A stretch of 64,000 bases of DNA from a virus. Below the pieces are notes generated by a model, which saw nothing but the letters and a program-made list of their open reading frames with translations, made no database searches and had not been told where the DNA came from. The translations under genes were made by a program, and so were the position numbers. Of this stretch, positions 3,034-41,162 are shown in pieces; within the stretch, counting starts at the first letter, position 1, and each line of letters opens with the position of its first letter. The stretch is taken from positions 3,635-67,634 of IMG/VR virus record IMGVR_UViG_3300030329_005612. One strand, given 5' to 3'.

Positions 3034-3441
3034 TTATGCGTCCGTGTCGGTGAGGTTTTCCGCTTTTCCGTGGTTGCTATCATATCCAAAAAATCGAACC
3101 CGTGAAGTTTTTGCCTTGTAACCCGTCGTGCCTTCAAGACTGTCGTAATCTTCTTGCGCGTACTTCCGCGCCACGGGCAACGCTCCACCCTCACGGCCTT
3201 TGAAATGCTCGGCGTCTTTATTCAGCAGTCGCGCCAAATGCGCCTCGGCAACTCCTTTCAAATACTTTTCGGGTGTTGTAAAGAAACTAACAATCTCGGA
3301 TGTTATCCAATTGGCAGAATCCAGTGATGACGCAATGCTATAGTGCCAAAACCAATAAAATTTTTCTTCTGCTTCTTCTGGAGAGTCAGCGTCAATATAA
3401 ATAATAATCTTTTCCCCCCAAGGTTGTTTTTTAATTGTCAT
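3034..3441 (-). CDS. Hypothetical protein (start MTIKKQPW)
   Basis: ATG at 3441 overlaps the end of the upstream ArfA-like ORF, suggesting translational coupling. Confidence 0.65.
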   Translation of the reverse strand: MTIKKQPWGEKIIIYIDADSPEEAEEKFYWFWHYSIASSLDSANWITSEIVSFFTTPEKYLKGVAEAHLARLLNKDAEHFKGREGGALPVARKYAQEDYDSLEGTTGYKAKTSRVRFFGYDSNHGKAENLTDTDA

Positions 3442-3574
3442 AACTTCTCCGATTGCGTTTGCTGCGAATAAAAGAACCCTTACCCCGTTTCGGTCGGTGA
3501 ACACGAGTCCCCATACCCATGCGCCCTTCGTGGTTAACTCGTGTCCTTATCCGTCTGGCTCGCTTGTCTTTCAC
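3431..3574 (-). CDS. ArfA-like (alternative ribosome rescue factor) peptide, 47 aa
   Basis: Hand-translated MKDKRARRIRTRVNHEGRMGMGTRVHRPKRGKGSFIRSKRNRRSYDN; the RVxxxKRGKGSFxR segment matches the ArfA core; GTG start 7 nt after a TATTCT -10-like box. Confidence 0.65.
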   Translation of the reverse strand: MKDKRARRIRTRVNHEGRMGMGTRVHRPKRGKGSFIRSKRNRRSYDN

Positions 3575-3672
3575 TTCCAAAAGAATACCATACACAAAAA
3601 TAAATACAAGACTTTTTTTGAGTTAAGTTGTTCACAGTGAAATGTTAATAAAAAAAGCTTGACAAGTCGAAC

Positions 3673-3713
3673 CTCGGGGGGCGGGCCCCCCGAAATAGTA
3701 CGTGTACGTACTA
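3673..3713. repeat. Bipartite palindromic element copy 4 (hairpin, then palindrome)
   Basis: ctc-G6-cggg-C6-gaa-atagtacgtgtacgtacta. Confidence 0.95.
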
Positions 3714-3715
3714 CT

Positions 3716-4489
3716 TCAATTGTAAGTAACTTTTTCTTTTTCGATGTGATCAGAACCACTCAAGCCCGTGCGCCACCCAAAAGTAAACATCGGAGTGAGG
3801 GGTGCGCGTCCATCTACTGGATCGCCACCTTTATATAAATAGTCAAATATTTCAATGCGTGGAATTCTATTTCTGTTGGGATGCTTCTTCCGATAGTATG
3901 AAAGAATCTCACGAGCATTATCTTTAGGACTGCCAGATTGAAAATTAAAACCTTTTTGATACCGACACCTTCTTAAATTTACAGCGTGAGTTTGATAAAT
4001 TAAAGCATCATCAAAATTATTAAGAAAAAAGGTTAAATCTTTCATGGGCGTGAGTTCCTTATCTGGGTAGTCTATCGGATAACAGCAATAGTCAGCCCAC
4101 AAAATTAATCTTTGGTTTCTAACCTTGCAACCATTGTTAATGTCGTCAGCGTCTAAGTTACTCCATTGATAAATGATTTCCACATTCGATTCTTTACCAT
4201 AAACAAAATAATCCTCAGTCCTTGTAATATCAAAAGGTAAGTTTGCTTTGTTGTCACCTGTCGTATTAGCTTTGTAAGTTCCCCAATTACTTTCAAAACA
4301 ATGCAAAGTAAATTTTATACGGGGAAACAAACGTGTAAGGATTGCGATGAGCATAGTTTCAAACTTCCAGTTTGAAGCTGGAAGCGTAACAATGTAAGAA
4401 TCAACAGGGTTGTTTTTAAGCTCGCTGATAATCTGTTCCAAGATAGAACTTCTGATACTGTGCTTTGTTGCATTGTTTTCAAGTCTCAT
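3716..4489 (-). CDS. Hypothetical protein, possibly a degenerate SAM-dependent methyltransferase fold
   Basis: 257-aa ORF; TLHCFE and LILWADYC strand motifs; promoter TTGCAA-17-TTTAAT 8 nt before ATG at 4489. Confidence 0.55.
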   Translation of the reverse strand: MRLENNATKHSIRSSILEQIISELKNNPVDSYIVTLPASNWKFETMLIAILTRLFPRIKFTLHCFESNWGTYKANTTGDNKANLPFDITRTEDYFVYGKESNVEIIYQWSNLDADDINNGCKVRNQRLILWADYCCYPIDYPDKELTPMKDLTFFLNNFDDALIYQTHAVNLRRCRYQKGFNFQSGSPKDNAREILSYYRKKHPNRNRIPRIEIFDYLYKGGDPVDGRAPLTPMFTFGWRTGLSGSDHIEKEKVTYN

Positions 4490-4538
4490 AACGCGCAATT
4501 AAACCATAAATCTCATAATCTTGCAAGCCTAAAGTTAA

Positions 4539-4581
4539 ATAATACGCACACGTACTATCGCGGGGGGCGGGCCCCCCGAAA
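4539..4581. repeat. Bipartite palindromic element copy 5 (palindrome, then hairpin)
   Basis: ataatacgcacacgtactat-cgc-G6-cggg-C6-gaaa. Confidence 0.9.
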
Positions 4582-4690: not shown

Positions 4691-5578
4691 CTATTCAGTC
4701 ACGACCACTTGGGAATTCTCAGGCACCGCCGTTAAGGTTTTCATCCGCTTCGGGTTAAGCGAAGCCGCTTGAAAGTTCTTCAACACGTTGCCGCTGATAC
4801 GGTTGGCGTACTCAAAGCGCGACCCCTCCACCTCATCGGTCAAATGTTGCGTGACCGCATTGTAAAGGTTGTAAAGGTTGCCATCGGTATCGTTTGACCG
4901 CAGCAGTTGGTCACGGTTGGCCCAAATAGACGCCACACGCTCGCGCACCTTGTCGCTGATGATTTTCTTTGCCGTAAGGTTGGCAAGAACATTCAAGCCA
5001 GTGTCGGTAGGCACAGCCTGTCCAGCGAGAGTGTGAAAAACATCGGTAGACCTACTTAACGACGCCAGCGACTTGTCGAGTGCCTCATCGGTGATGAGAG
5101 AGTCAAGACTGAGCTTGCGTGAGTGCTTGGACACCATGTCCACATCCTTCTCCATTGTTTGCATTCCGTTGGTGCAGATTAACCGCATCAGCCCCAAGGC
5201 AAACGAAATCCGCAGGGTACGGTCAAAAGAGTTCTGCACCGTCAAGCGGTAAGACATAACGTCGCCCACTTGTGGGCCAGCAACTTGAAAGTTCTCGCCT
5301 TCGAGGTCGTAAACGGCGCGGAGCTTTCTGCCGCCATCGGTAACATAAACATTGCGATTGTAGCCAATGCCGCGACGGTCTAGTGCTTCGTCAGCCTTGT
5401 CCAGCAAATCGGCATTGTTTACTACGGCGTAACGCTCCGAGGTAGCCCCAAGAATCTCGCCATTGTCCTCGCGGATATTCATAAAATAGCCTGACTTGCT
5501 TCCCGTGATGGGGTGAGGTACAGCAACTTGGCTGACGGTGAAATCGAATTCAGATGATTGTTTTGCTTCAATTGGCAT
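4691..5578 (-). CDS. DUF932/DUF945-family phage/plasmid protein
   Basis: LGATSERYAVVNN, QNSFDRT, RLICTNGM, KHS and NLYNLYNAVT motifs. Confidence 0.85.
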   Translation of the reverse strand: MPIEAKQSSEFDFTVSQVAVPHPITGSKSGYFMNIREDNGEILGATSERYAVVNNADLLDKADEALDRRGIGYNRNVYVTDGGRKLRAVYDLEGENFQVAGPQVGDVMSYRLTVQNSFDRTLRISFALGLMRLICTNGMQTMEKDVDMVSKHSRKLSLDSLITDEALDKSLASLSRSTDVFHTLAGQAVPTDTGLNVLANLTAKKIISDKVRERVASIWANRDQLLRSNDTDGNLYNLYNAVTQHLTDEVEGSRFEYANRISGNVLKNFQAASLNPKRMKTLTAVPENSQVVVTE

Positions 5579-5816: not shown

Positions 5817-5858
5817 CTCGGGGGGCGGGCCCCCCCAAATAGTACGTACACGTACTAT
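5817..5858. repeat. Bipartite palindromic element copy 6 (hairpin, then palindrome)
   Basis: ctc-G6-cggg-C7-aa-atagtacgtacacgtactat. Confidence 0.95.
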
Positions 5859-7348: not shown

Positions 7349-7390
7349 GATAGTACGTGTACGTACTATCGCGGGGGGTGGGCCCCCCTG
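7349..7390. repeat. Bipartite palindromic element copy 7 (palindrome, then hairpin); extra half-site at 7320-7330
   Basis: gatagtacgtgtacgtactatc-gc-G6-tggg-C6-tg. Confidence 0.95.
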
Positions 7391-20372: not shown

Positions 20373-20383
20373 AAAGAAATAGT

Positions 20384-20535
20384 GGATGAGAGGATTTCTG
20401 CGATACCTCTAAAGCCAGCACCCAATACAGTTCATGTTTGCCAGCTTGCCTACCCCACAAGGCTCATACGATTGCACTCTGCCGCTGTGGAGCAACACCT
20501 TTCCCCTTGAGATACAAGGATATTCAGTCACATCC
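20384..20535 (-). ncRNA. manA-motif-like structured RNA
   Basis: GGATG/CATCC closing helix; GTGACTGAATA 5' segment, AGGTGTTGCT, AGGCAAG, ACTGT and GAGG-TATCGCAGAAAT-CCTC 3' hairpin recall the manA RNA of marine phages (from memory). Confidence 0.55.
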
Positions 20536-20607
20536 GTTAAGTTCTCCGTCGAGAACTTAAATTTTAAAAGAACAATAGATAGATTATATTCTACCTTAAT
20601 ATATTAG

Positions 20608-32268: not shown

Positions 32269-32553
32269 ATGCCAGCTACATACAGTACAGTGGGAACCCT
32301 ACAAGGAGCGTTACACCAGAGCTTTACAACGGGGGATTTTATGCTCGTTACTGCTGGAGATTCGTCGTACCAAAGTCAAATCACAGGACTCCTAAACACT
32401 GGACTCAGCTATGACAGGGCTGAACTTACCAATCACATTGGTAGGGAATATTATAGAAAACTAAATCAATTTGGTTTAAGCCCAACCTACAAAGACAGTC
32501 TAGACTCTGGCTTTAGACCCTTAACTTTCACTGGCTTATACACGGCTCCCTAA
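32269..32553 (+). CDS. Hypothetical protein (lone plus-strand gene, probably late)
   Basis: Preceded by GTGTAATTAA motif at 32255-32264. Confidence 0.65.
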
Positions 32554-33710
32554 GTATTCTTCCCAAATACTTCGTTCGATTGTTGGGTGACCCGAACAAA
32601 AGTGGCACACTTAGGCATATCCTTTAGCCTTCTTGCTCCGATATAGGTACACGCAGAACGTAGTCCGCCAAGGATACTTTCTACCGTGTTTTTGACTAGC
32701 CCTCTGTGTTCCACTCTAACTGTTTTGCCTTCTGACGAACGGTAGCTTGCAACGCCGCCGTAATGTTTCTTCATGGCTGATTCAGAACTCATACCATAGA
32801 AAGTTTTATATTTTTTGCCATCTATTTCTTCTTCTTGACCGGCGCACTCCGTATGTCCAGCGAGCATACCACCAAGCATAACAAAATCCGCACCACCACC
32901 AAAAGCCTTGGCAACATCTCCAGCACAGGTACAACCGCCATCAGCCATAATATACCCCCCAACGCCATGAGCGGCATCGGCACACTCAACCACCGCGCTA
33001 AATTGGGGATAACCAACACCAGTCTGAATGCGGGTAGTGCAAACAGAACCACTTCCAATACCAACCTTAACGATGTCTGCTCCGCTTAATATGATCTCTT
33101 CTGTCATTTCGCCAGTAACAACATTACCCGCAATGATAATGAGCGCGGGGTGTTCTTCCCTGACTCGTTTAATAAAATCACAAAATCTTGCAGTGTATCC
33201 ATTAGCTGCATCAATACAAACGAATCTATTATGGTAAAAATTCCATTGAATGTCTCTAAGGTAATCTACATCATCATAATTATTTGGGTCATACTTGATA
33301 CCAATAGAGGGACAAAGATGGTCGTAAATTCTACTTTGCCAACTCTTTGCTCCACGCTCGTACTTCCAATTTTTTGAGTTAGCTTCCCTACTTGCTTTCG
33401 TTTTGTAAACCCCGTAGCCATCCAGCTTATGTAACCACTTGTCTACATCATTGTGTTTACTAATACAGGTAAGCATATGATGTGGAGCAAGAGTTTTTGC
33501 CATTTCAAAAGTCCCTACCGTGTCCATATTTGAGGCCACGATTGGGATGCCTTTCCAGCCATAATCTTTAGGGTTGCTACCTTCACCGCCAGCATTAGGA
33601 AAAGTAAACTCACGAACCAAATCGACTTCCTTTCGGGAGGTCAAAGTAGAACGCTTTGGGCGCATAAGAACATCCTTATAGTCCAGCTTAATGTCTGATT
33701 CAATTCTCAT
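32550..33710 (-). CDS. guaC: GMP reductase
   Basis: [47 protein letters not shown] and YRSSEGK. Confidence 0.95.
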
Positions 33711-35499: not shown

Positions 35500-36624
35500 T
35501 TAAGATTGTATTTCCAATAACTCAAGATTATCAGTGAACTTATCGAAGGGAATATCTTTATAAGTAAGAACGTGGGAAAGCTTCTGTTTATAGCTCCTGC
35601 GCTCTATAAACCTTTCATCGAGAACCCCTTCGGCCATTAGTGCGGCTACGGCAGAAATAGGGGAAGCTGTTGCTCGCTGCATGGCAGTAAAGGGATTAGA
35701 ATATCCTACAATTATTTCTTTCTCAAAGCTTACGCTTCCAGCGCGTACAACCACCCTAATAATAACGATATCCCCATATGGGGATGGGGGACATGTTTTT
35801 TCAAAGAATTTTGAAACGACATCATCTTCTAGGTTGGCTTTTTTTATCAGCCCATGCACAATATCCCTGTGTCCTTTGAATCTGAGCGTTTTATAAAAGC
35901 AATTTTTAACATCACGACGCTGCATGTCTCTAAGGGTATGGGACGCTCCACCGCTAGTACAAAATGCTTCTAGCTCTTCCCCAAGCAGTTTAATATAAAT
36001 TTTTTCATGACCTGACATTCCTTCTACGGTTTTTATTTCACCATTAACAAGAACTTCACAGTCATCTTTGTACTCATTAATAAGTCCATCCATTGACCAC
36101 GTTAAAAGATAATTAAGGGGTGGATTAGCATCAAAATTAGCTGGTAATCCACCTACCATCATCTCAACTGATTCAACAGGTCGATGAAGCTCTGAGAACC
36201 CTTGTTCAGCTAAAATGTTGACCCACCCCGGCGCAAGGCCGAGGTCGGTCATGACAGGGAAGTTGGCATTCTCTGTCGCGTATTGATTTATAAACCGAGA
36301 TACGTCTACACGCCCCCCTAGGTCGCAATAACGAACCCCGGAATCAATACAAAATTGAGCTAATTCTTTATTTTGATGAAAAGGAAGACTACTGATTACC
36401 ACTTCAGGTCTTTCAAAGTCTGGTATGATTTCTTTATAATTTCTTTTATTGCAATCGTAAAAAATTCCATTTTTATCCTCAGGGGTAGAGTTTATAATTT
36501 TTCTAAAATCCCCCGCCGCATTCTCATTACTATCAACACCTATGACATAGTACCCTAGCCGCGACATACAATGAGTAATGGCCAAACCCATTCTTCCTAT
36601 TCCAAATACTGCAACTTTTTTCAT
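35500..36624 (-). CDS. Saccharopine dehydrogenase-family oxidoreductase (lysine 6-dehydrogenase-like)
   Basis: GIGRMG Rossmann fold, YCDLGG, DLGLAPG, VGGLP, WS.DGLINEY, TSGG and YKTLR..GH. Confidence 0.88.
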   Translation of the reverse strand: MKKVAVFGIGRMGLAITHCMSRLGYYVIGVDSNENAAGDFRKIINSTPEDKNGIFYDCNKRNYKEIIPDFERPEVVISSLPFHQNKELAQFCIDSGVRYCDLGGRVDVSRFINQYATENANFPVMTDLGLAPGWVNILAEQGFSELHRPVESVEMMVGGLPANFDANPPLNYLLTWSMDGLINEYKDDCEVLVNGEIKTVEGMSGHEKIYIKLLGEELEAFCTSGGASHTLRDMQRRDVKNCFYKTLRFKGHRDIVHGLIKKANLEDDVVSKFFEKTCPPSPYGDIVIIRVVVRAGSVSFEKEIIVGYSNPFTAMQRATASPISAVAALMAEGVLDERFIERRSYKQKLSHVLTYKDIPFDKFTDNLELLEIQS

Positions 36625-39617: not shown

Positions 39618-41162
39618 TTATTTCATTCCTTGGGGAAAAGTTAGTTTATCGGCATGATTCACCGTCCAACTTACTTCATGTGTGACAGCCCTGAAAGTTC
39701 TAGCTGCACTGGGAAAACCATTTCCAGACTTCTTGACTCCTCCAAAGGCAAGATGTGATTCGGCTGCAATAGAGCCACCATTCCAGTAAATCATACCCGC
39801 TTCACACTCGTCTCTTAATACTCGTGCTTTTCTGAAATCATTAGTAAGAACTCCTACCGCTAATCCATACTCTGTATCATTATAAATCCGAATAGCATCT
39901 TCCAAAGTATCAAAAGGAATAATGGCTACGTGAGGACCAAAAACTTCATTGCGTAAATAAGGGGCGTCACCCCCGCGCCATTCTACTTTATAAATCATGG
40001 GTGTAGAAAAGAAGGCTCCATTATCAGTAGTGTAGGTGGGGTGTAGCACTACGTCTGCTTGGGGGTCGTCTATAACCATTTGGTTGTACTGGCTAACTTT
40101 ATTGAAGGCTTGTTCATTAATGAGAGGTCCATAATACATTTCTTTGTTCACAACCCACTCTTCCCAAGCTACCACTTCAGGCATTCCAGTAGACTTTGTT
40201 ATTTGTATAAATGGATTGCCAGTTTTTATATCTTTACTTTTTTCAACAAACCGTGATACGAATTCATCATATACCGTACGCTGAACTATTAACCTTCCAG
40301 AAGAAACACACCGTTGACCAGAAAGTTTATATGCGCTAGCCACAGCCGCTTCAAGTGCGAGGTCCATTTCTACGTCATCAAAAATGATACAAGCTGACTT
40401 ACTGCCCATCTCACACGATGTTGTTTTATGCCAGCTGTCTGCTGCAACCCTTCGTATGTGTTGCCCTACTTCTGCACTTCCTGTAAAACAAATATGATCT
40501 ACATCATCGACGGCTAAAAGGTTTCCTGTATCTCCTTCTCCATGAACCAAATTAATAACACCAGCTGGAATACCAGCTTCTTCATAAATTTCTATAGCTA
40601 ACTGAGATGACATGGGTGCATCTTCGGAGGGTTTGAGTATTACAGTGTTCCCTTCTACAAGGGCTGGCGCAGCACACCAGTACGCTCCAATAGCCAAAGG
40701 AAAATTAAACGGAGATATAATTGCTATTACACCTTTTGGCTTGCGTAGCATGTAGGCATCTTTATCTTCTATCTCAGACGCTACTGCTTCGCCGTGAGAA
40801 TATCTACCTGAACCAAACGCAAATTGAGCCATATGTAAAGCTTCATTTACCTCTGCTATGGACTCGTTATAGTTTTTACCTGTCTCTAGTGAAATAACTT
40901 CTGCTAGCTCTTCTTTTCTGTTTTCAATTATTTGAGCTACCCTGTTCATGTAATCAGAGCGCACAAATCTGCTAACTTTTTTCCACTTATGGAAAGCTTT
41001 CCTCGCAGATTTAACTGCTAAATCCACCTCGTTAGGTCCACTTAATGGGAATGCACCTAAAGGTTTTCCTGTGGATGGATTAATATTATGGTAGCTGCTT
41101 TCATCCTTGGTGTGAGGCAGGCTCCACTCTCCATTAATATAATTTTTTCCTTCCATGTTCAT
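39618..41162 (-). CDS. Aldehyde dehydrogenase
   Basis: ISPFNFP, LKPSE, FTGS, CEMGSK, GQRCVS, EVFGP and FGGVKKSG. Confidence 0.95.
   Translation of the reverse strand: MNMEGKNYINGEWSLPHTKDESSYHNINPSTGKPLGAFPLSGPNEVDLAVKSARKAFHKWKKVSRFVRSDYMNRVAQIIENRKEELAEVISLETGKNYNESIAEVNEALHMAQFAFGSGRYSHGEAVASEIEDKDAYMLRKPKGVIAIISPFNFPLAIGAYWCAAPALVEGNTVILKPSEDAPMSSQLAIEIYEEAGIPAGVINLVHGEGDTGNLLAVDDVDHICFTGSAEVGQHIRRVAADSWHKTTSCEMGSKSACIIFDDVEMDLALEAAVASAYKLSGQRCVSSGRLIVQRTVYDEFVSRFVEKSKDIKTGNPFIQITKSTGMPEVVAWEEWVVNKEMYYGPLINEQAFNKVSQYNQMVIDDPQADVVLHPTYTTDNGAFFSTPMIYKVEWRGGDAPYLRNEVFGPHVAIIPFDTLEDAIRIYNDTEYGLAVGVLTNDFRKARVLRDECEAGMIYWNGGSIAAESHLAFGGVKKSGNGFPSAARTFRAVTHEVSWTVNHADKLTFPQGMK

Follow-up and report, generated by a model that had tools for sequence, protein, structure and literature searches.

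Known rescue factors and the viral locus

The described system closest to the gene considered here is bacterial ArfA. In ArfA, residues Q27-E30 extend the domain 2/4 sheet of release factor 2 (RF2) by one strand, residues 31-48 occupy the mRNA tunnel, and K44-H45 lie in a pocket that is used by BrfA too; ArfA truncated at Asn47 is active, and ArfA truncated after Met40 is inactive (PMC8012679, PMC5378476). BrfA of Bacillus, like ArfA, has the KH pocket motif and adds a strand to RF2 (PMC8012679), and ArfT of Francisella is described as a helix with charged residues by which RF1 or RF2 is recruited (PMC8012679, PMC6514570). The gene described here, termed mini-ArfA, encodes 47 residues and lies in the virus record IMGVR_UViG_3300030329_005612 of IMG/VR, within a stretch of 64,000 nucleotides (the window; positions 3,635 to 67,634 of the record). 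Profile comparisons identify its C-terminal 23 residues as homologous to ArfA 26-48 and leave its N-terminal half, which carries a conserved motif of the type RVNxxGxMGSA, unmatched. A role of mini-ArfA as a constitutive, release-factor-dependent ribosome-rescue factor is assigned a probability of about 0.5.

Like bacterial ArfA, mini-ArfA is small and has no stable fold of its own, its C-terminal 23 residues align, and its length equals that of active truncated ArfA. In contrast, its N-terminal 21 residues are basic and unrelated to ArfA, and the ArfA helix 15-24, Ala18, and Phe25 are missing. The window copy has K-R-N at the position of the KH motif and scores under the Pfam cut-off for ArfA; by that threshold, as by its N-terminal half, mini-ArfA is not classed as a canonical ArfA. 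Additionally, the gene is phage-borne, its transcript is probably leaderless, and it ends in an ordinary stop codon with neither a hydrophobic extension nor a hairpin, and control by trans-translation is unlikely. On these comparisons, mini-ArfA most likely works like the tunnel-sensing half of ArfA.

BrfA and ArfT, two release-factor-dependent rescue factors without sequence kinship to ArfA, resemble mini-ArfA in logic, being small proteins with a basic C-terminal tunnel part and a lineage-specific N-terminus. There is no sequence match to either, as the family profile hits only ArfA chains and one unrelated chain (E 0.61) in the PDB, and BrfA is regulated via a non-stop mRNA whereas the mini-ArfA gene is not. 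The C-terminal tails of SmpB and ArfB are likewise basic and sense the vacant mRNA tunnel (PMC5378476), but they are helical and belong to proteins with a tRNA-mimic or a GGQ hydrolase domain, both of which mini-ArfA lacks.

Phage-encoded proteins with an ArfA tail have precedents, and two reports annotate ArfA genes in phage isolates, namely Citromicrobium phage vB_CbaS-RXM (OL963731) and Pelagibacter phage HTVC027P (MN698241) (PMC8953757, PMC12753301). RXM g10 is a small protein with an ArfA tail (29.6 bits), but it is of the canonical type, covering profile positions 12-43 and carrying a hydrophobic C-terminal extension. HTVC027P gp30 (20.2 bits) represents another tail-only type, with a third kind of N-terminus; it is reported to be highly expressed early (3 hours post infection) and again late (PMC12753301). 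Both lack the RVNxxGxMGSA motif. Automatic annotation has already given relatives of mini-ArfA the label, with 24 of the 120 listed relatives named "stalled ribosome alternative rescue factor ArfA" in IMG and a precomputed PF03889 hit in 33 of the 120 by our own count; what appears new is the RVN-type N-terminus joined to an ArfA tail. No functional study of a phage ArfA was found in the open-access literature.

Evidence that mini-ArfA is a gene

A preliminary description of the locus proposed a 47-residue Arg/Lys-rich open reading frame (ORF) here, and this ORF is present, though on the minus strand, which the description omits (Table 1). The motif that was quoted, TRVHRPKRGKGSFIRSKR, is found as an exact match in the translation, and our count of 18 Lys/Arg versus 3 Asp/Glu in the 47 residues (net charge approximately +15) bears out the basic composition. 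The statement that the gene is unannotated is correct for this record but not for the relatives named ArfA by IMG. A 54-aa gene call with an identical sequence exists, nameless, in the protein collection; the entry in the ORF list is likewise the 54-aa form (3431..3595, minus strand, from a GTG), and the 47-aa form starts at an in-frame second GTG. The 47-aa form is the likely product and is preferred, because the homologues have ATG where the window copy has its second GTG, and because a change at 3593 in two metagenome runs converts the upstream GTG to GTA.

Four lines of evidence support the conclusion that the ORF is a real, conserved gene rather than a chance reading frame. First, in a six-frame scan of the entire 67.6-kb record, the mini-ArfA locus is the sole match to the Pfam ArfA family (E 6.6e-4). 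Second, homologues occur in frame; a syntenic relative, a viral contig of 175.8 kb (L002), has the same small ORF in frame, followed by a counterpart of the 135-aa gene with 60% identity, and shows synonymous changes relative to the window in the G-K-G and R-V codons. Third, the proportion of nonsynonymous differences (pN) is lower than that of synonymous differences (pS) in all 325 pairs from 26 distinct gene copies (mean pN 0.20, mean pS 0.71, over a 26-codon core). Fourth, the stretch is present in marine metagenome runs of several studies, and among the four natural changes within the ORF, from contigs of three runs or studies, three are synonymous (codons 22, 28, and 34, all on a single low-depth contig of 97 nt), with the other (D3G) falling in the variable N-terminus.

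A chance ORF within the 5' leader of the 135-aa gene would be consistent with the very short length, the GTG start, the lack of a Shine-Dalgarno motif, and the lack of a promoter in a sigma-70 scan. This explanation is already contradicted by the conservation data, namely the uniformly low pN, the existence of 91 cluster representatives of the family, the synonymous natural variants in the core, and the retention of the reading frame where the downstream gene is absent or located elsewhere, which together reduce its probability to almost nothing.

Table 1. Positions of mini-ArfA, of neighbouring and repeated elements in the window, and of tmRNA genes in related records
Feature	Position	Strand	Description
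mini-ArfA coding sequence	3431..3574	minus	47 aa; GTG start 3572-3574, TAA stop 3431-3433; homologues, purifying selection, ArfA-tail match
Codons 22-44, aligned to E. coli ArfA 26-48	3443..3511	minus	hhalign query 22-44 versus template 26-48; PDB alignment
Codons 2-21, basic N-terminus and R-V-N-x-x-G-x-M-G motif (here RVNHEGRMGM)	3512..3571	minus	left unaligned by hhalign; motif columns
Putative early promoter	3582..3609	minus	-35 TTGTAT 3609-3604; 16-nt spacer, TG 3590-3589; -10 TATTCT 3587-3582; GTG 7 nt on
p135, downstream 135-aa gene	3034..3441	minus	overlaps the end of mini-ArfA by 11 nt; GGAG 7 nt ahead of ATG
260-aa gene upstream of mini-ArfA	3716-4498	minus	no Pfam or PHROG family; between two cassettes
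Repeated intergenic cassette	3658..3712		palindrome AGTACGTGTACGTACT 3697-3712; GC stem-loop 3675-3692; GCTTGACAAG 3658-3667
Copies of palindrome AGTACGTRYACGTACT	130-145, 914-929, 1436-1451, 3697-3712, 4541-4556, 5841-5856, 7352-7367
tmRNA gene, L054	G152:C1:70910-71327
tmRNA gene, L055	G154:C1:78562-79020
tmRNA gene	G159:C1:30829-31256
tmRNA gene	G175:C1:42872-43274

The C-terminal half and its match to ArfA

Among Pfam families, ArfA (PF03889) ranks first in all five members scanned and is the sole hit in four of them, and the match spans profile positions 25-43 of 44 in each. The scores are 31.3 bits for the syntenic orthologue in L002, 23.9 bits for L004, 23.8 bits for L005, 21.4 bits for L006, and 17.8 bits (E 2.3e-3) for the window copy in its 47-aa form (17.4 bits in the 54-aa form), relative to a gathering cut-off of 25.5 bits. 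When the family profile is compared with the PDB sequences, E. coli ArfA chains account for the top six of seven hits (E 1.5e-3 to 2.6e-3), aligned over ArfA 28-48. An hhalign comparison of 52 family sequences with 77 ArfA sequences gives a probability of 95.6% (E 1.2e-8) over 23 columns; the canonical set is enterobacterial only and hence narrow, since a search in the Cellvibrionaceae neighbourhood matched 3 of 151 genomes, too few to use. Of the 30 clusters nearest to the family in the ESM Atlas, 25 have PF03889 in about 10-12% of their members. The label "ArfA-like" in the preliminary description thus holds for the tail, for which a profile match is obtained in every member scanned, but not for the N-terminal half, which is unmatched, and the window copy itself scores under the cut-off.

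Residue n of the window copy corresponds to ArfA residue n+4, and the peptide therefore covers the ArfA-equivalent positions 5-51, which agrees with the earlier suggestion that it is already of truncated length, as ArfA cut at Asn47 is still active (PMC5378476). The aligned block takes in the RF2-docking strand (Q27-E30) and the full tunnel segment (31-48) and extends beyond Asn47. The residues T23-R24-V25-H26 are the equivalents of Q27-E30, with R and V at ArfA 28-29 identical in the window copy, and the tail core GKGS[FY]xR is likewise identical to that of ArfA. The K44-H45 pocket motif is not found in the window copy, which has K39-R40-N41 there; K-H at the ArfA spacing is found in 5 of the 13 other sequences of alignment A5, which comprises these and the window copy (L002, L005, L006, L009, and P0017), and is common in the wider family.

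Because only 19-23 residues are matched, many of them Lys, Arg, or Gly, the likeness to the ArfA tail could be a convergent low-complexity similarity in a small basic nucleic-acid binder that does not act on ribosomes, such as a DNA/RNA chaperone or an internal virion protein. The Pfam scores, mostly under the cut-off, and the occurrence of family members within larger proteins (P0031, P0032, and P0076) are compatible with this explanation. Against it, the residues follow the ordered pattern R-x-x-x-x-K-K-G-K-G-S-[FY]-x-R-x-x-K-H, which recurs at fixed spacing, Pfam and the PDB return ArfA alone besides weak chance hits, and the hhalign probability is high, so a convergent origin appears improbable.

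The N-terminal half and the predicted fold

In the window copy the N-terminal motif reads RVNHEGRMGMG, and R12, V13, G17, and M19 are invariant across 19 sequences. A profile of the N-terminal half gives no match to the PDB sequences at E<=10. In length the region is similar to that of ArfA, with 23 rather than 27 residues ahead of the shared Arg. The N-terminal half, which replaces the RF2-activating half of ArfA, thus has no match in ArfA or among the PDB sequences. The near invariance of its motif under purifying selection suggests that it makes a specific contact and is more than a stretch of charge.

The AlphaFold2 model of the peptide, calculated with alignment A5, is a coil (pLDDT 64, pTM 0.16) and provides no usable fold, as expected of a peptide that may fold only on its partner. 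The prediction of a complex with E. coli RF2 (Swiss-Prot) and the same alignment returned a score of 0.00 and no answer, and bears on neither direction.

As a separate observation, the Gly codon ahead of the invariant Met (window 3518-3526, codons 17-19) takes the form GGG or GGA in 17 of the 26 copies compared, as against 3 of 23, 2 of 26, and 6 of 26 at other Gly positions. This choice often yields AAGG or GAGG 4-6 nt ahead of ATG, and an internal start at the invariant Met could give a tail-only peptide. It is a weak lead, because the Shine-Dalgarno-like words are largely a by-product of the Glu/Gln-Gly codons.

Extent and variation of the family

The RVN-type family consists of proteins of 38-50 aa from uncultivated, mostly marine phages, defined by a basic N-terminus, the sequence R-V-N-x-x-G-x-M-G-S-A, and an ArfA-type tail, a definition into which the window copy falls. 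The window copy aligns with the family over its full length, keeps R12, V13, N14, G17, M19, and the G-K-G-S core, and (as P0001) scores 84 bits (E 3.3e-19) against the family profile, of which it is itself one of the seeds. A homologue search with the single window peptide retrieves only itself, and an alignment is required to reach the relatives.

A profile of five copies finds 91 proteins at E<=0.001, of which 45 are at E<=1e-10, among 1.84 billion cluster representatives, and 67 of the 91 fit the expression for the N-terminal motif. With a profile of 14 sequences, 385 proteins reach E<=0.001 among the 8,000 candidates scored from a collection of 5.8 billion (90% clustering). Pattern scans seeded by the alignment gave 5 viral loci at first, plus 4 loci in genome contigs, and a wider scan gave 36 viral loci with in-frame homologues on contigs of 17-178 kb, 29 of the same type and 7 of a second short type. 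No family matching the window peptide is present in NCBIfam or PHROGs, and a megablast search of the region against GenBank phages gives no match. In tblastn searches of 50,697 GenBank phage records, which short divergent peptides could escape, the L009 peptide has no match and the window peptide and P0229 have only chance hits (E 7-9).

The second short type has an ArfA tail and the N-terminus K-P-R-V-L-I-R-F-N-T-G-x-R-V-H-K-P-K-K-G-K-G-S-Y; its viral loci are L037, L038, L040, L047, L049, L051, and L053. It is also bacterial, as a 39-aa protein (L011:2977-3093; 24.7 bits to PF03889) lies amid ordinary chromosomal genes of a Limisphaerales bacterium. The motif additionally occurs in longer proteins, at the C-terminus of P0032 (532 aa) and inside P0031 (121 aa) and P0076 (148 aa), which are candidate fusions or gene-call artefacts; P0031 and P0076 have a common N-terminal domain. 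A subgroup (P0006, P0008, P0021, and P0066) has approximately 20 additional N-terminal residues (xEVISPDxKVA...).

Expression signals and lack of ArfA-type regulation

Upstream of mini-ArfA, a sequence read by eye as a promoter (TTGTAT, TGg-TATTCT) has 7 of 12 consensus matches, and the region ahead of the ORF yields no hit in the sigma-70 scan. In the homologues the signals are clearer: TAnnnT ends 5-8 nt ahead of the start in 17 of 26 distinct upstream regions, compared with 5.7% at random positions of the same loci, and a perfect TTGACA at 17 nt is present in 10 of the 26. A Shine-Dalgarno word is found in none of the 26. Two loci, L027 and L032, have instead a sigma-54-like TGGCAC-N5-CTGCT box 11 nt ahead of the ATG. 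The mRNAs of the family are thus probably leaderless and transcribed from host-type promoters, which suits early expression, and the promoter and leaderless start of the window copy are probable by position, as extrapolated from the homologues. The claim that the gene has its own promoter is consequently supported by near-perfect promoters at the same position in the homologues but not by the scan of the window itself.

The same arrangement, in which a -10 box precedes the ATG by 5-7 nt and a Shine-Dalgarno sequence is lacking, is common at early genes of this phage group (upstream regions of L018-L052; other small genes of L005 and L006). Gene callers frequently over-extend such leaderless-looking genes through the promoter, giving N-termini like CYNRRM.

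The ORF ends in TAA after residue 47 without a hydrophobic C-terminal extension, and its RNA folds no better than shuffled sequence (z = +0.93). In ArfA, by comparison, an internal hairpin, RNase III site, or terminator yields the non-stop mRNA, and the hydrophobic extension is dispensable. Judged from the true stop codon and the lack of a structured element in the ORF, the non-stop/hairpin control of ArfA by tmRNA (transfer-messenger RNA) is absent, in accordance with the constitutive activity proposed earlier. With an ordinary stop codon, mini-ArfA would escape the tmRNA-dependent control that limits bacterial ArfA.

Ribosome-rescue genes in related phages

A search for tmRNA (cut-off 47 bits) covered 33 viral records, namely 32 that bear the family by pattern scan and the record from which the window comes. 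Four of the 33 have a full tmRNA gene (124-148 bits; Table 1), including three of the five records that are at least 70% complete, and ARAGORN identifies one phage tmRNA with the tag EADEILAKFGYVEEEELQLAA, which ends in LAA. The examined part of the window's own record has no tmRNA, the matches being two tRNAs and one weak hit. Neither SmpB (five related records searched) nor an RF-1 domain (four related records searched) is found, and any rescue would thus use host SmpB and host release factors. The four mini-ArfA records with tmRNA suggest that this phage group invests in ribosome rescue.

Separately, a Cellvibrionaceae metagenome-assembled genome (MAG; L010/L012, contig C5 ~71300-71386) encodes a canonical-like ArfA (36.1 bits), with a tRNA gene ending immediately ahead of it. 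The 3' end of a tRNA gene is a typical integration site, and the ArfA gene may lie on an island or a prophage.

Proposed function

The proposed rescue factor would be an intrinsically disordered, very basic product of 47 residues, made early and probably from a leaderless transcript. Residues ~27-44 (equivalent to ArfA 31-48) would thread into the mRNA entry tunnel of the 30S subunit where this is vacant, as in ribosomes that have run to the 3' end of a cut or truncated mRNA and stalled. The T-R-V-H stretch at residues 23-26, which corresponds to Q27-E30, would lie in the A site, where it could extend the domain 2/4 sheet of a host class-I release factor by a beta strand, and the N-terminal motif would stand in for the hydrophobic N-terminus of ArfA in holding the release factor or the decoding centre active. 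Release of the nascent chain would make the ribosome available again for phage translation, in parallel with tmRNA or as a backup to it. The conservation of the gene, the homology of its tail, and the absence of ArfA-type regulation are shown here; binding to the tunnel, recruitment of a release factor, and a benefit to the phage are inferred.

Several points weigh against this proposal. ArfA/RF2 pairs are species-specific. The window copy is the most divergent member of the family, with NHEGRMGMG in place of the family NPEGLMGSA and K-R-N where the family has mostly K-H, and its PF03889 score lies under a cut-off that only L002 among the five members passes. Additionally, hhalign finds nothing alignable to ArfA 1-25 (query residues 1-21 are left out), and this is the region whose helix 15-24, Ala18, and Phe25 activate RF2, the A18T substitution abolishing that activation (PMC8012679). 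The N-terminus of ArfA is conserved as hydrophobic for protein contacts (PMC5378476), and the strongly basic N-terminus of mini-ArfA seems to fit RNA contacts better than RF2 contacts. Finally, a metatranscriptome contig (depth 2) covers 3562-3724, through the intergenic region, which, if it is RNA, would oppose a strictly leaderless start; such a contig cannot show a transcript start and may reflect DNA carry-over, and it neither supports nor excludes leaderless initiation.

These points lead to the main alternative, in which mini-ArfA would be a non-productive occupant of the tunnel and the A site (an "anti-rescue" factor or a release-factor trap) that plugs stalled ribosomes without activating the release factor. 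Such an occupant would be a competitor of tmRNA-SmpB, ArfA, or ArfB, or would keep RF2 closed like ArfA(A18T). Either effect would change the rescue route taken in infected cells; phage proteins might escape tagging, for instance, or the phage tmRNA might be favoured. The peptide has only the tail and the adjacent strand in common with ArfA, with a basic stretch replacing the activating half; ArfA(A18T) represents a real state of tunnel binding and RF2 recruitment without activation (PMC8012679); and some relatives carry their own tmRNA. A plug, however, needs no invariant N-terminal motif, and BrfA and ArfT activate release factors despite unrelated N-termini (PMC8012679, PMC6514570). Blocked rescue would also strand ribosomes that the phage needs, and the canonical-type ArfA of phage RXM (g10) suggests that rescue itself is useful to phages. 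This alternative is considered rather unlikely.

The high charge and the tunnel-type tail, together with the early, unregulated expression inferred above, would also suit a general modulator of translation that binds the empty channel of free 30S or 70S particles and slows the loading of host mRNA (shut-off) or parks ribosomes, instead of targeting stalled complexes. The phage's own mRNAs, probably leaderless, use the same channel, with no obvious selectivity, and ArfA gives way to mRNA that extends more than ~3 nt past the P site (PMC8012679). Such a modulator would also leave the conserved strand equivalent and the N-terminal motif unexplained, and it is accordingly given a low probability.

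A more speculative extension of these ideas concerns the motif itself. RVNxxGxMGSA may be a new ribosome or release-factor module placed on an ArfA tunnel plug, either to recruit the factors of hosts that lack ArfA or to serve as a phage switch that occupies stalled host ribosomes but does not free them, or traps RF2, and thereby steers rescue to the phage tmRNA. This idea is offered tentatively and is judged unlikely, at a level similar to that of the non-productive occupant.

Genomic context

The record is 67.6 kb in length with a CheckV completeness of 43%. It carries rIIA, a clamp loader, and a ribonucleotide reductase, with a G+C content of 36-44%, and the best rIIA matches are below 40% identity and scattered over many hosts. 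The phage is a large marine T4-like phage without close isolates. MAG labels of gene-bearing contigs (Pseudomonadales, Ignavibacteria) were considered for host assignment and rejected as untrustworthy.

The neighbours of mini-ArfA include GP88 (2246-2995) and DUF932 (4691-5578), in the recurrent order DUF932, small gene, p135, GP88. Apart from the window, 12 distinct loci have a homologue of p135 as the next gene after the small one. The AlphaFold model of p135 is confident (pLDDT 85), with no PDB fold match at E<=0.001, no Pfam family, and no tblastn match among GenBank phages. The p135 gene is translationally coupled to mini-ArfA, and its product could be a functional partner.

The cassette between the upstream gene and mini-ArfA is conserved in L002 and L009. 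Its palindrome, AGTACGTRYACGTACT, has 7 copies in the window, all within the first 7.4 kb, compared with 0.01 expected, and each copy is intergenic, in a cassette with a GC stem-loop and the word TTGACAAG. Metagenome depth spikes, with many loose ends, coincide with the cassettes. In contigs of two marine metagenome runs, 3681 is connected to 4537 through 10 other nucleotides and 3682-4536 is missing, which indicates natural variants without the 260-aa gene and with breakpoints within two cassette copies. These elements resemble the PeSL promoter/terminator cassettes that shuffle early genes in T4-like phages (PMC4122927). Mini-ArfA lies within an early hyperplastic region with promoter/terminator cassettes.

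Elsewhere in the window, the Rfam manA RNA motif (RF01745) is present at 20379-20557 on the minus strand (64.7 bits versus a gathering score of 55.2). Genes of metabolism unusual for a phage are located on the same strand at 32550-33710, 35500-36624, and 39618-41162, encoding an IMPDH/GMP-reductase family protein, a saccharopine-dehydrogenase-like protein, and an aldehyde dehydrogenase, respectively.

Implications for phage biology

The locus presents the ArfA tunnel-binding module, apparently freed of tmRNA control and fitted with a different N-terminus, in a sizeable gene family of marine phages, some of which carry tmRNA. If mini-ArfA is a rescue factor, these phages would boost ribosome recycling while host mRNA is being destroyed, and the N-terminal motif would be a fourth independent solution to stop-codon-free activation of a release factor, after ArfA, BrfA, and ArfT, in approximately 20 residues. 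A rescue-blocking activity would instead make it a naturally occurring peptide inhibitor of a pathway at which antibiotics are being aimed, and if it acts as a switch, mini-ArfA and the phage tmRNA together would amount to a viral take-over of the host ribosome-rescue network. The small size of the protein makes it a synthesisable peptide, with which the question can be tested directly.

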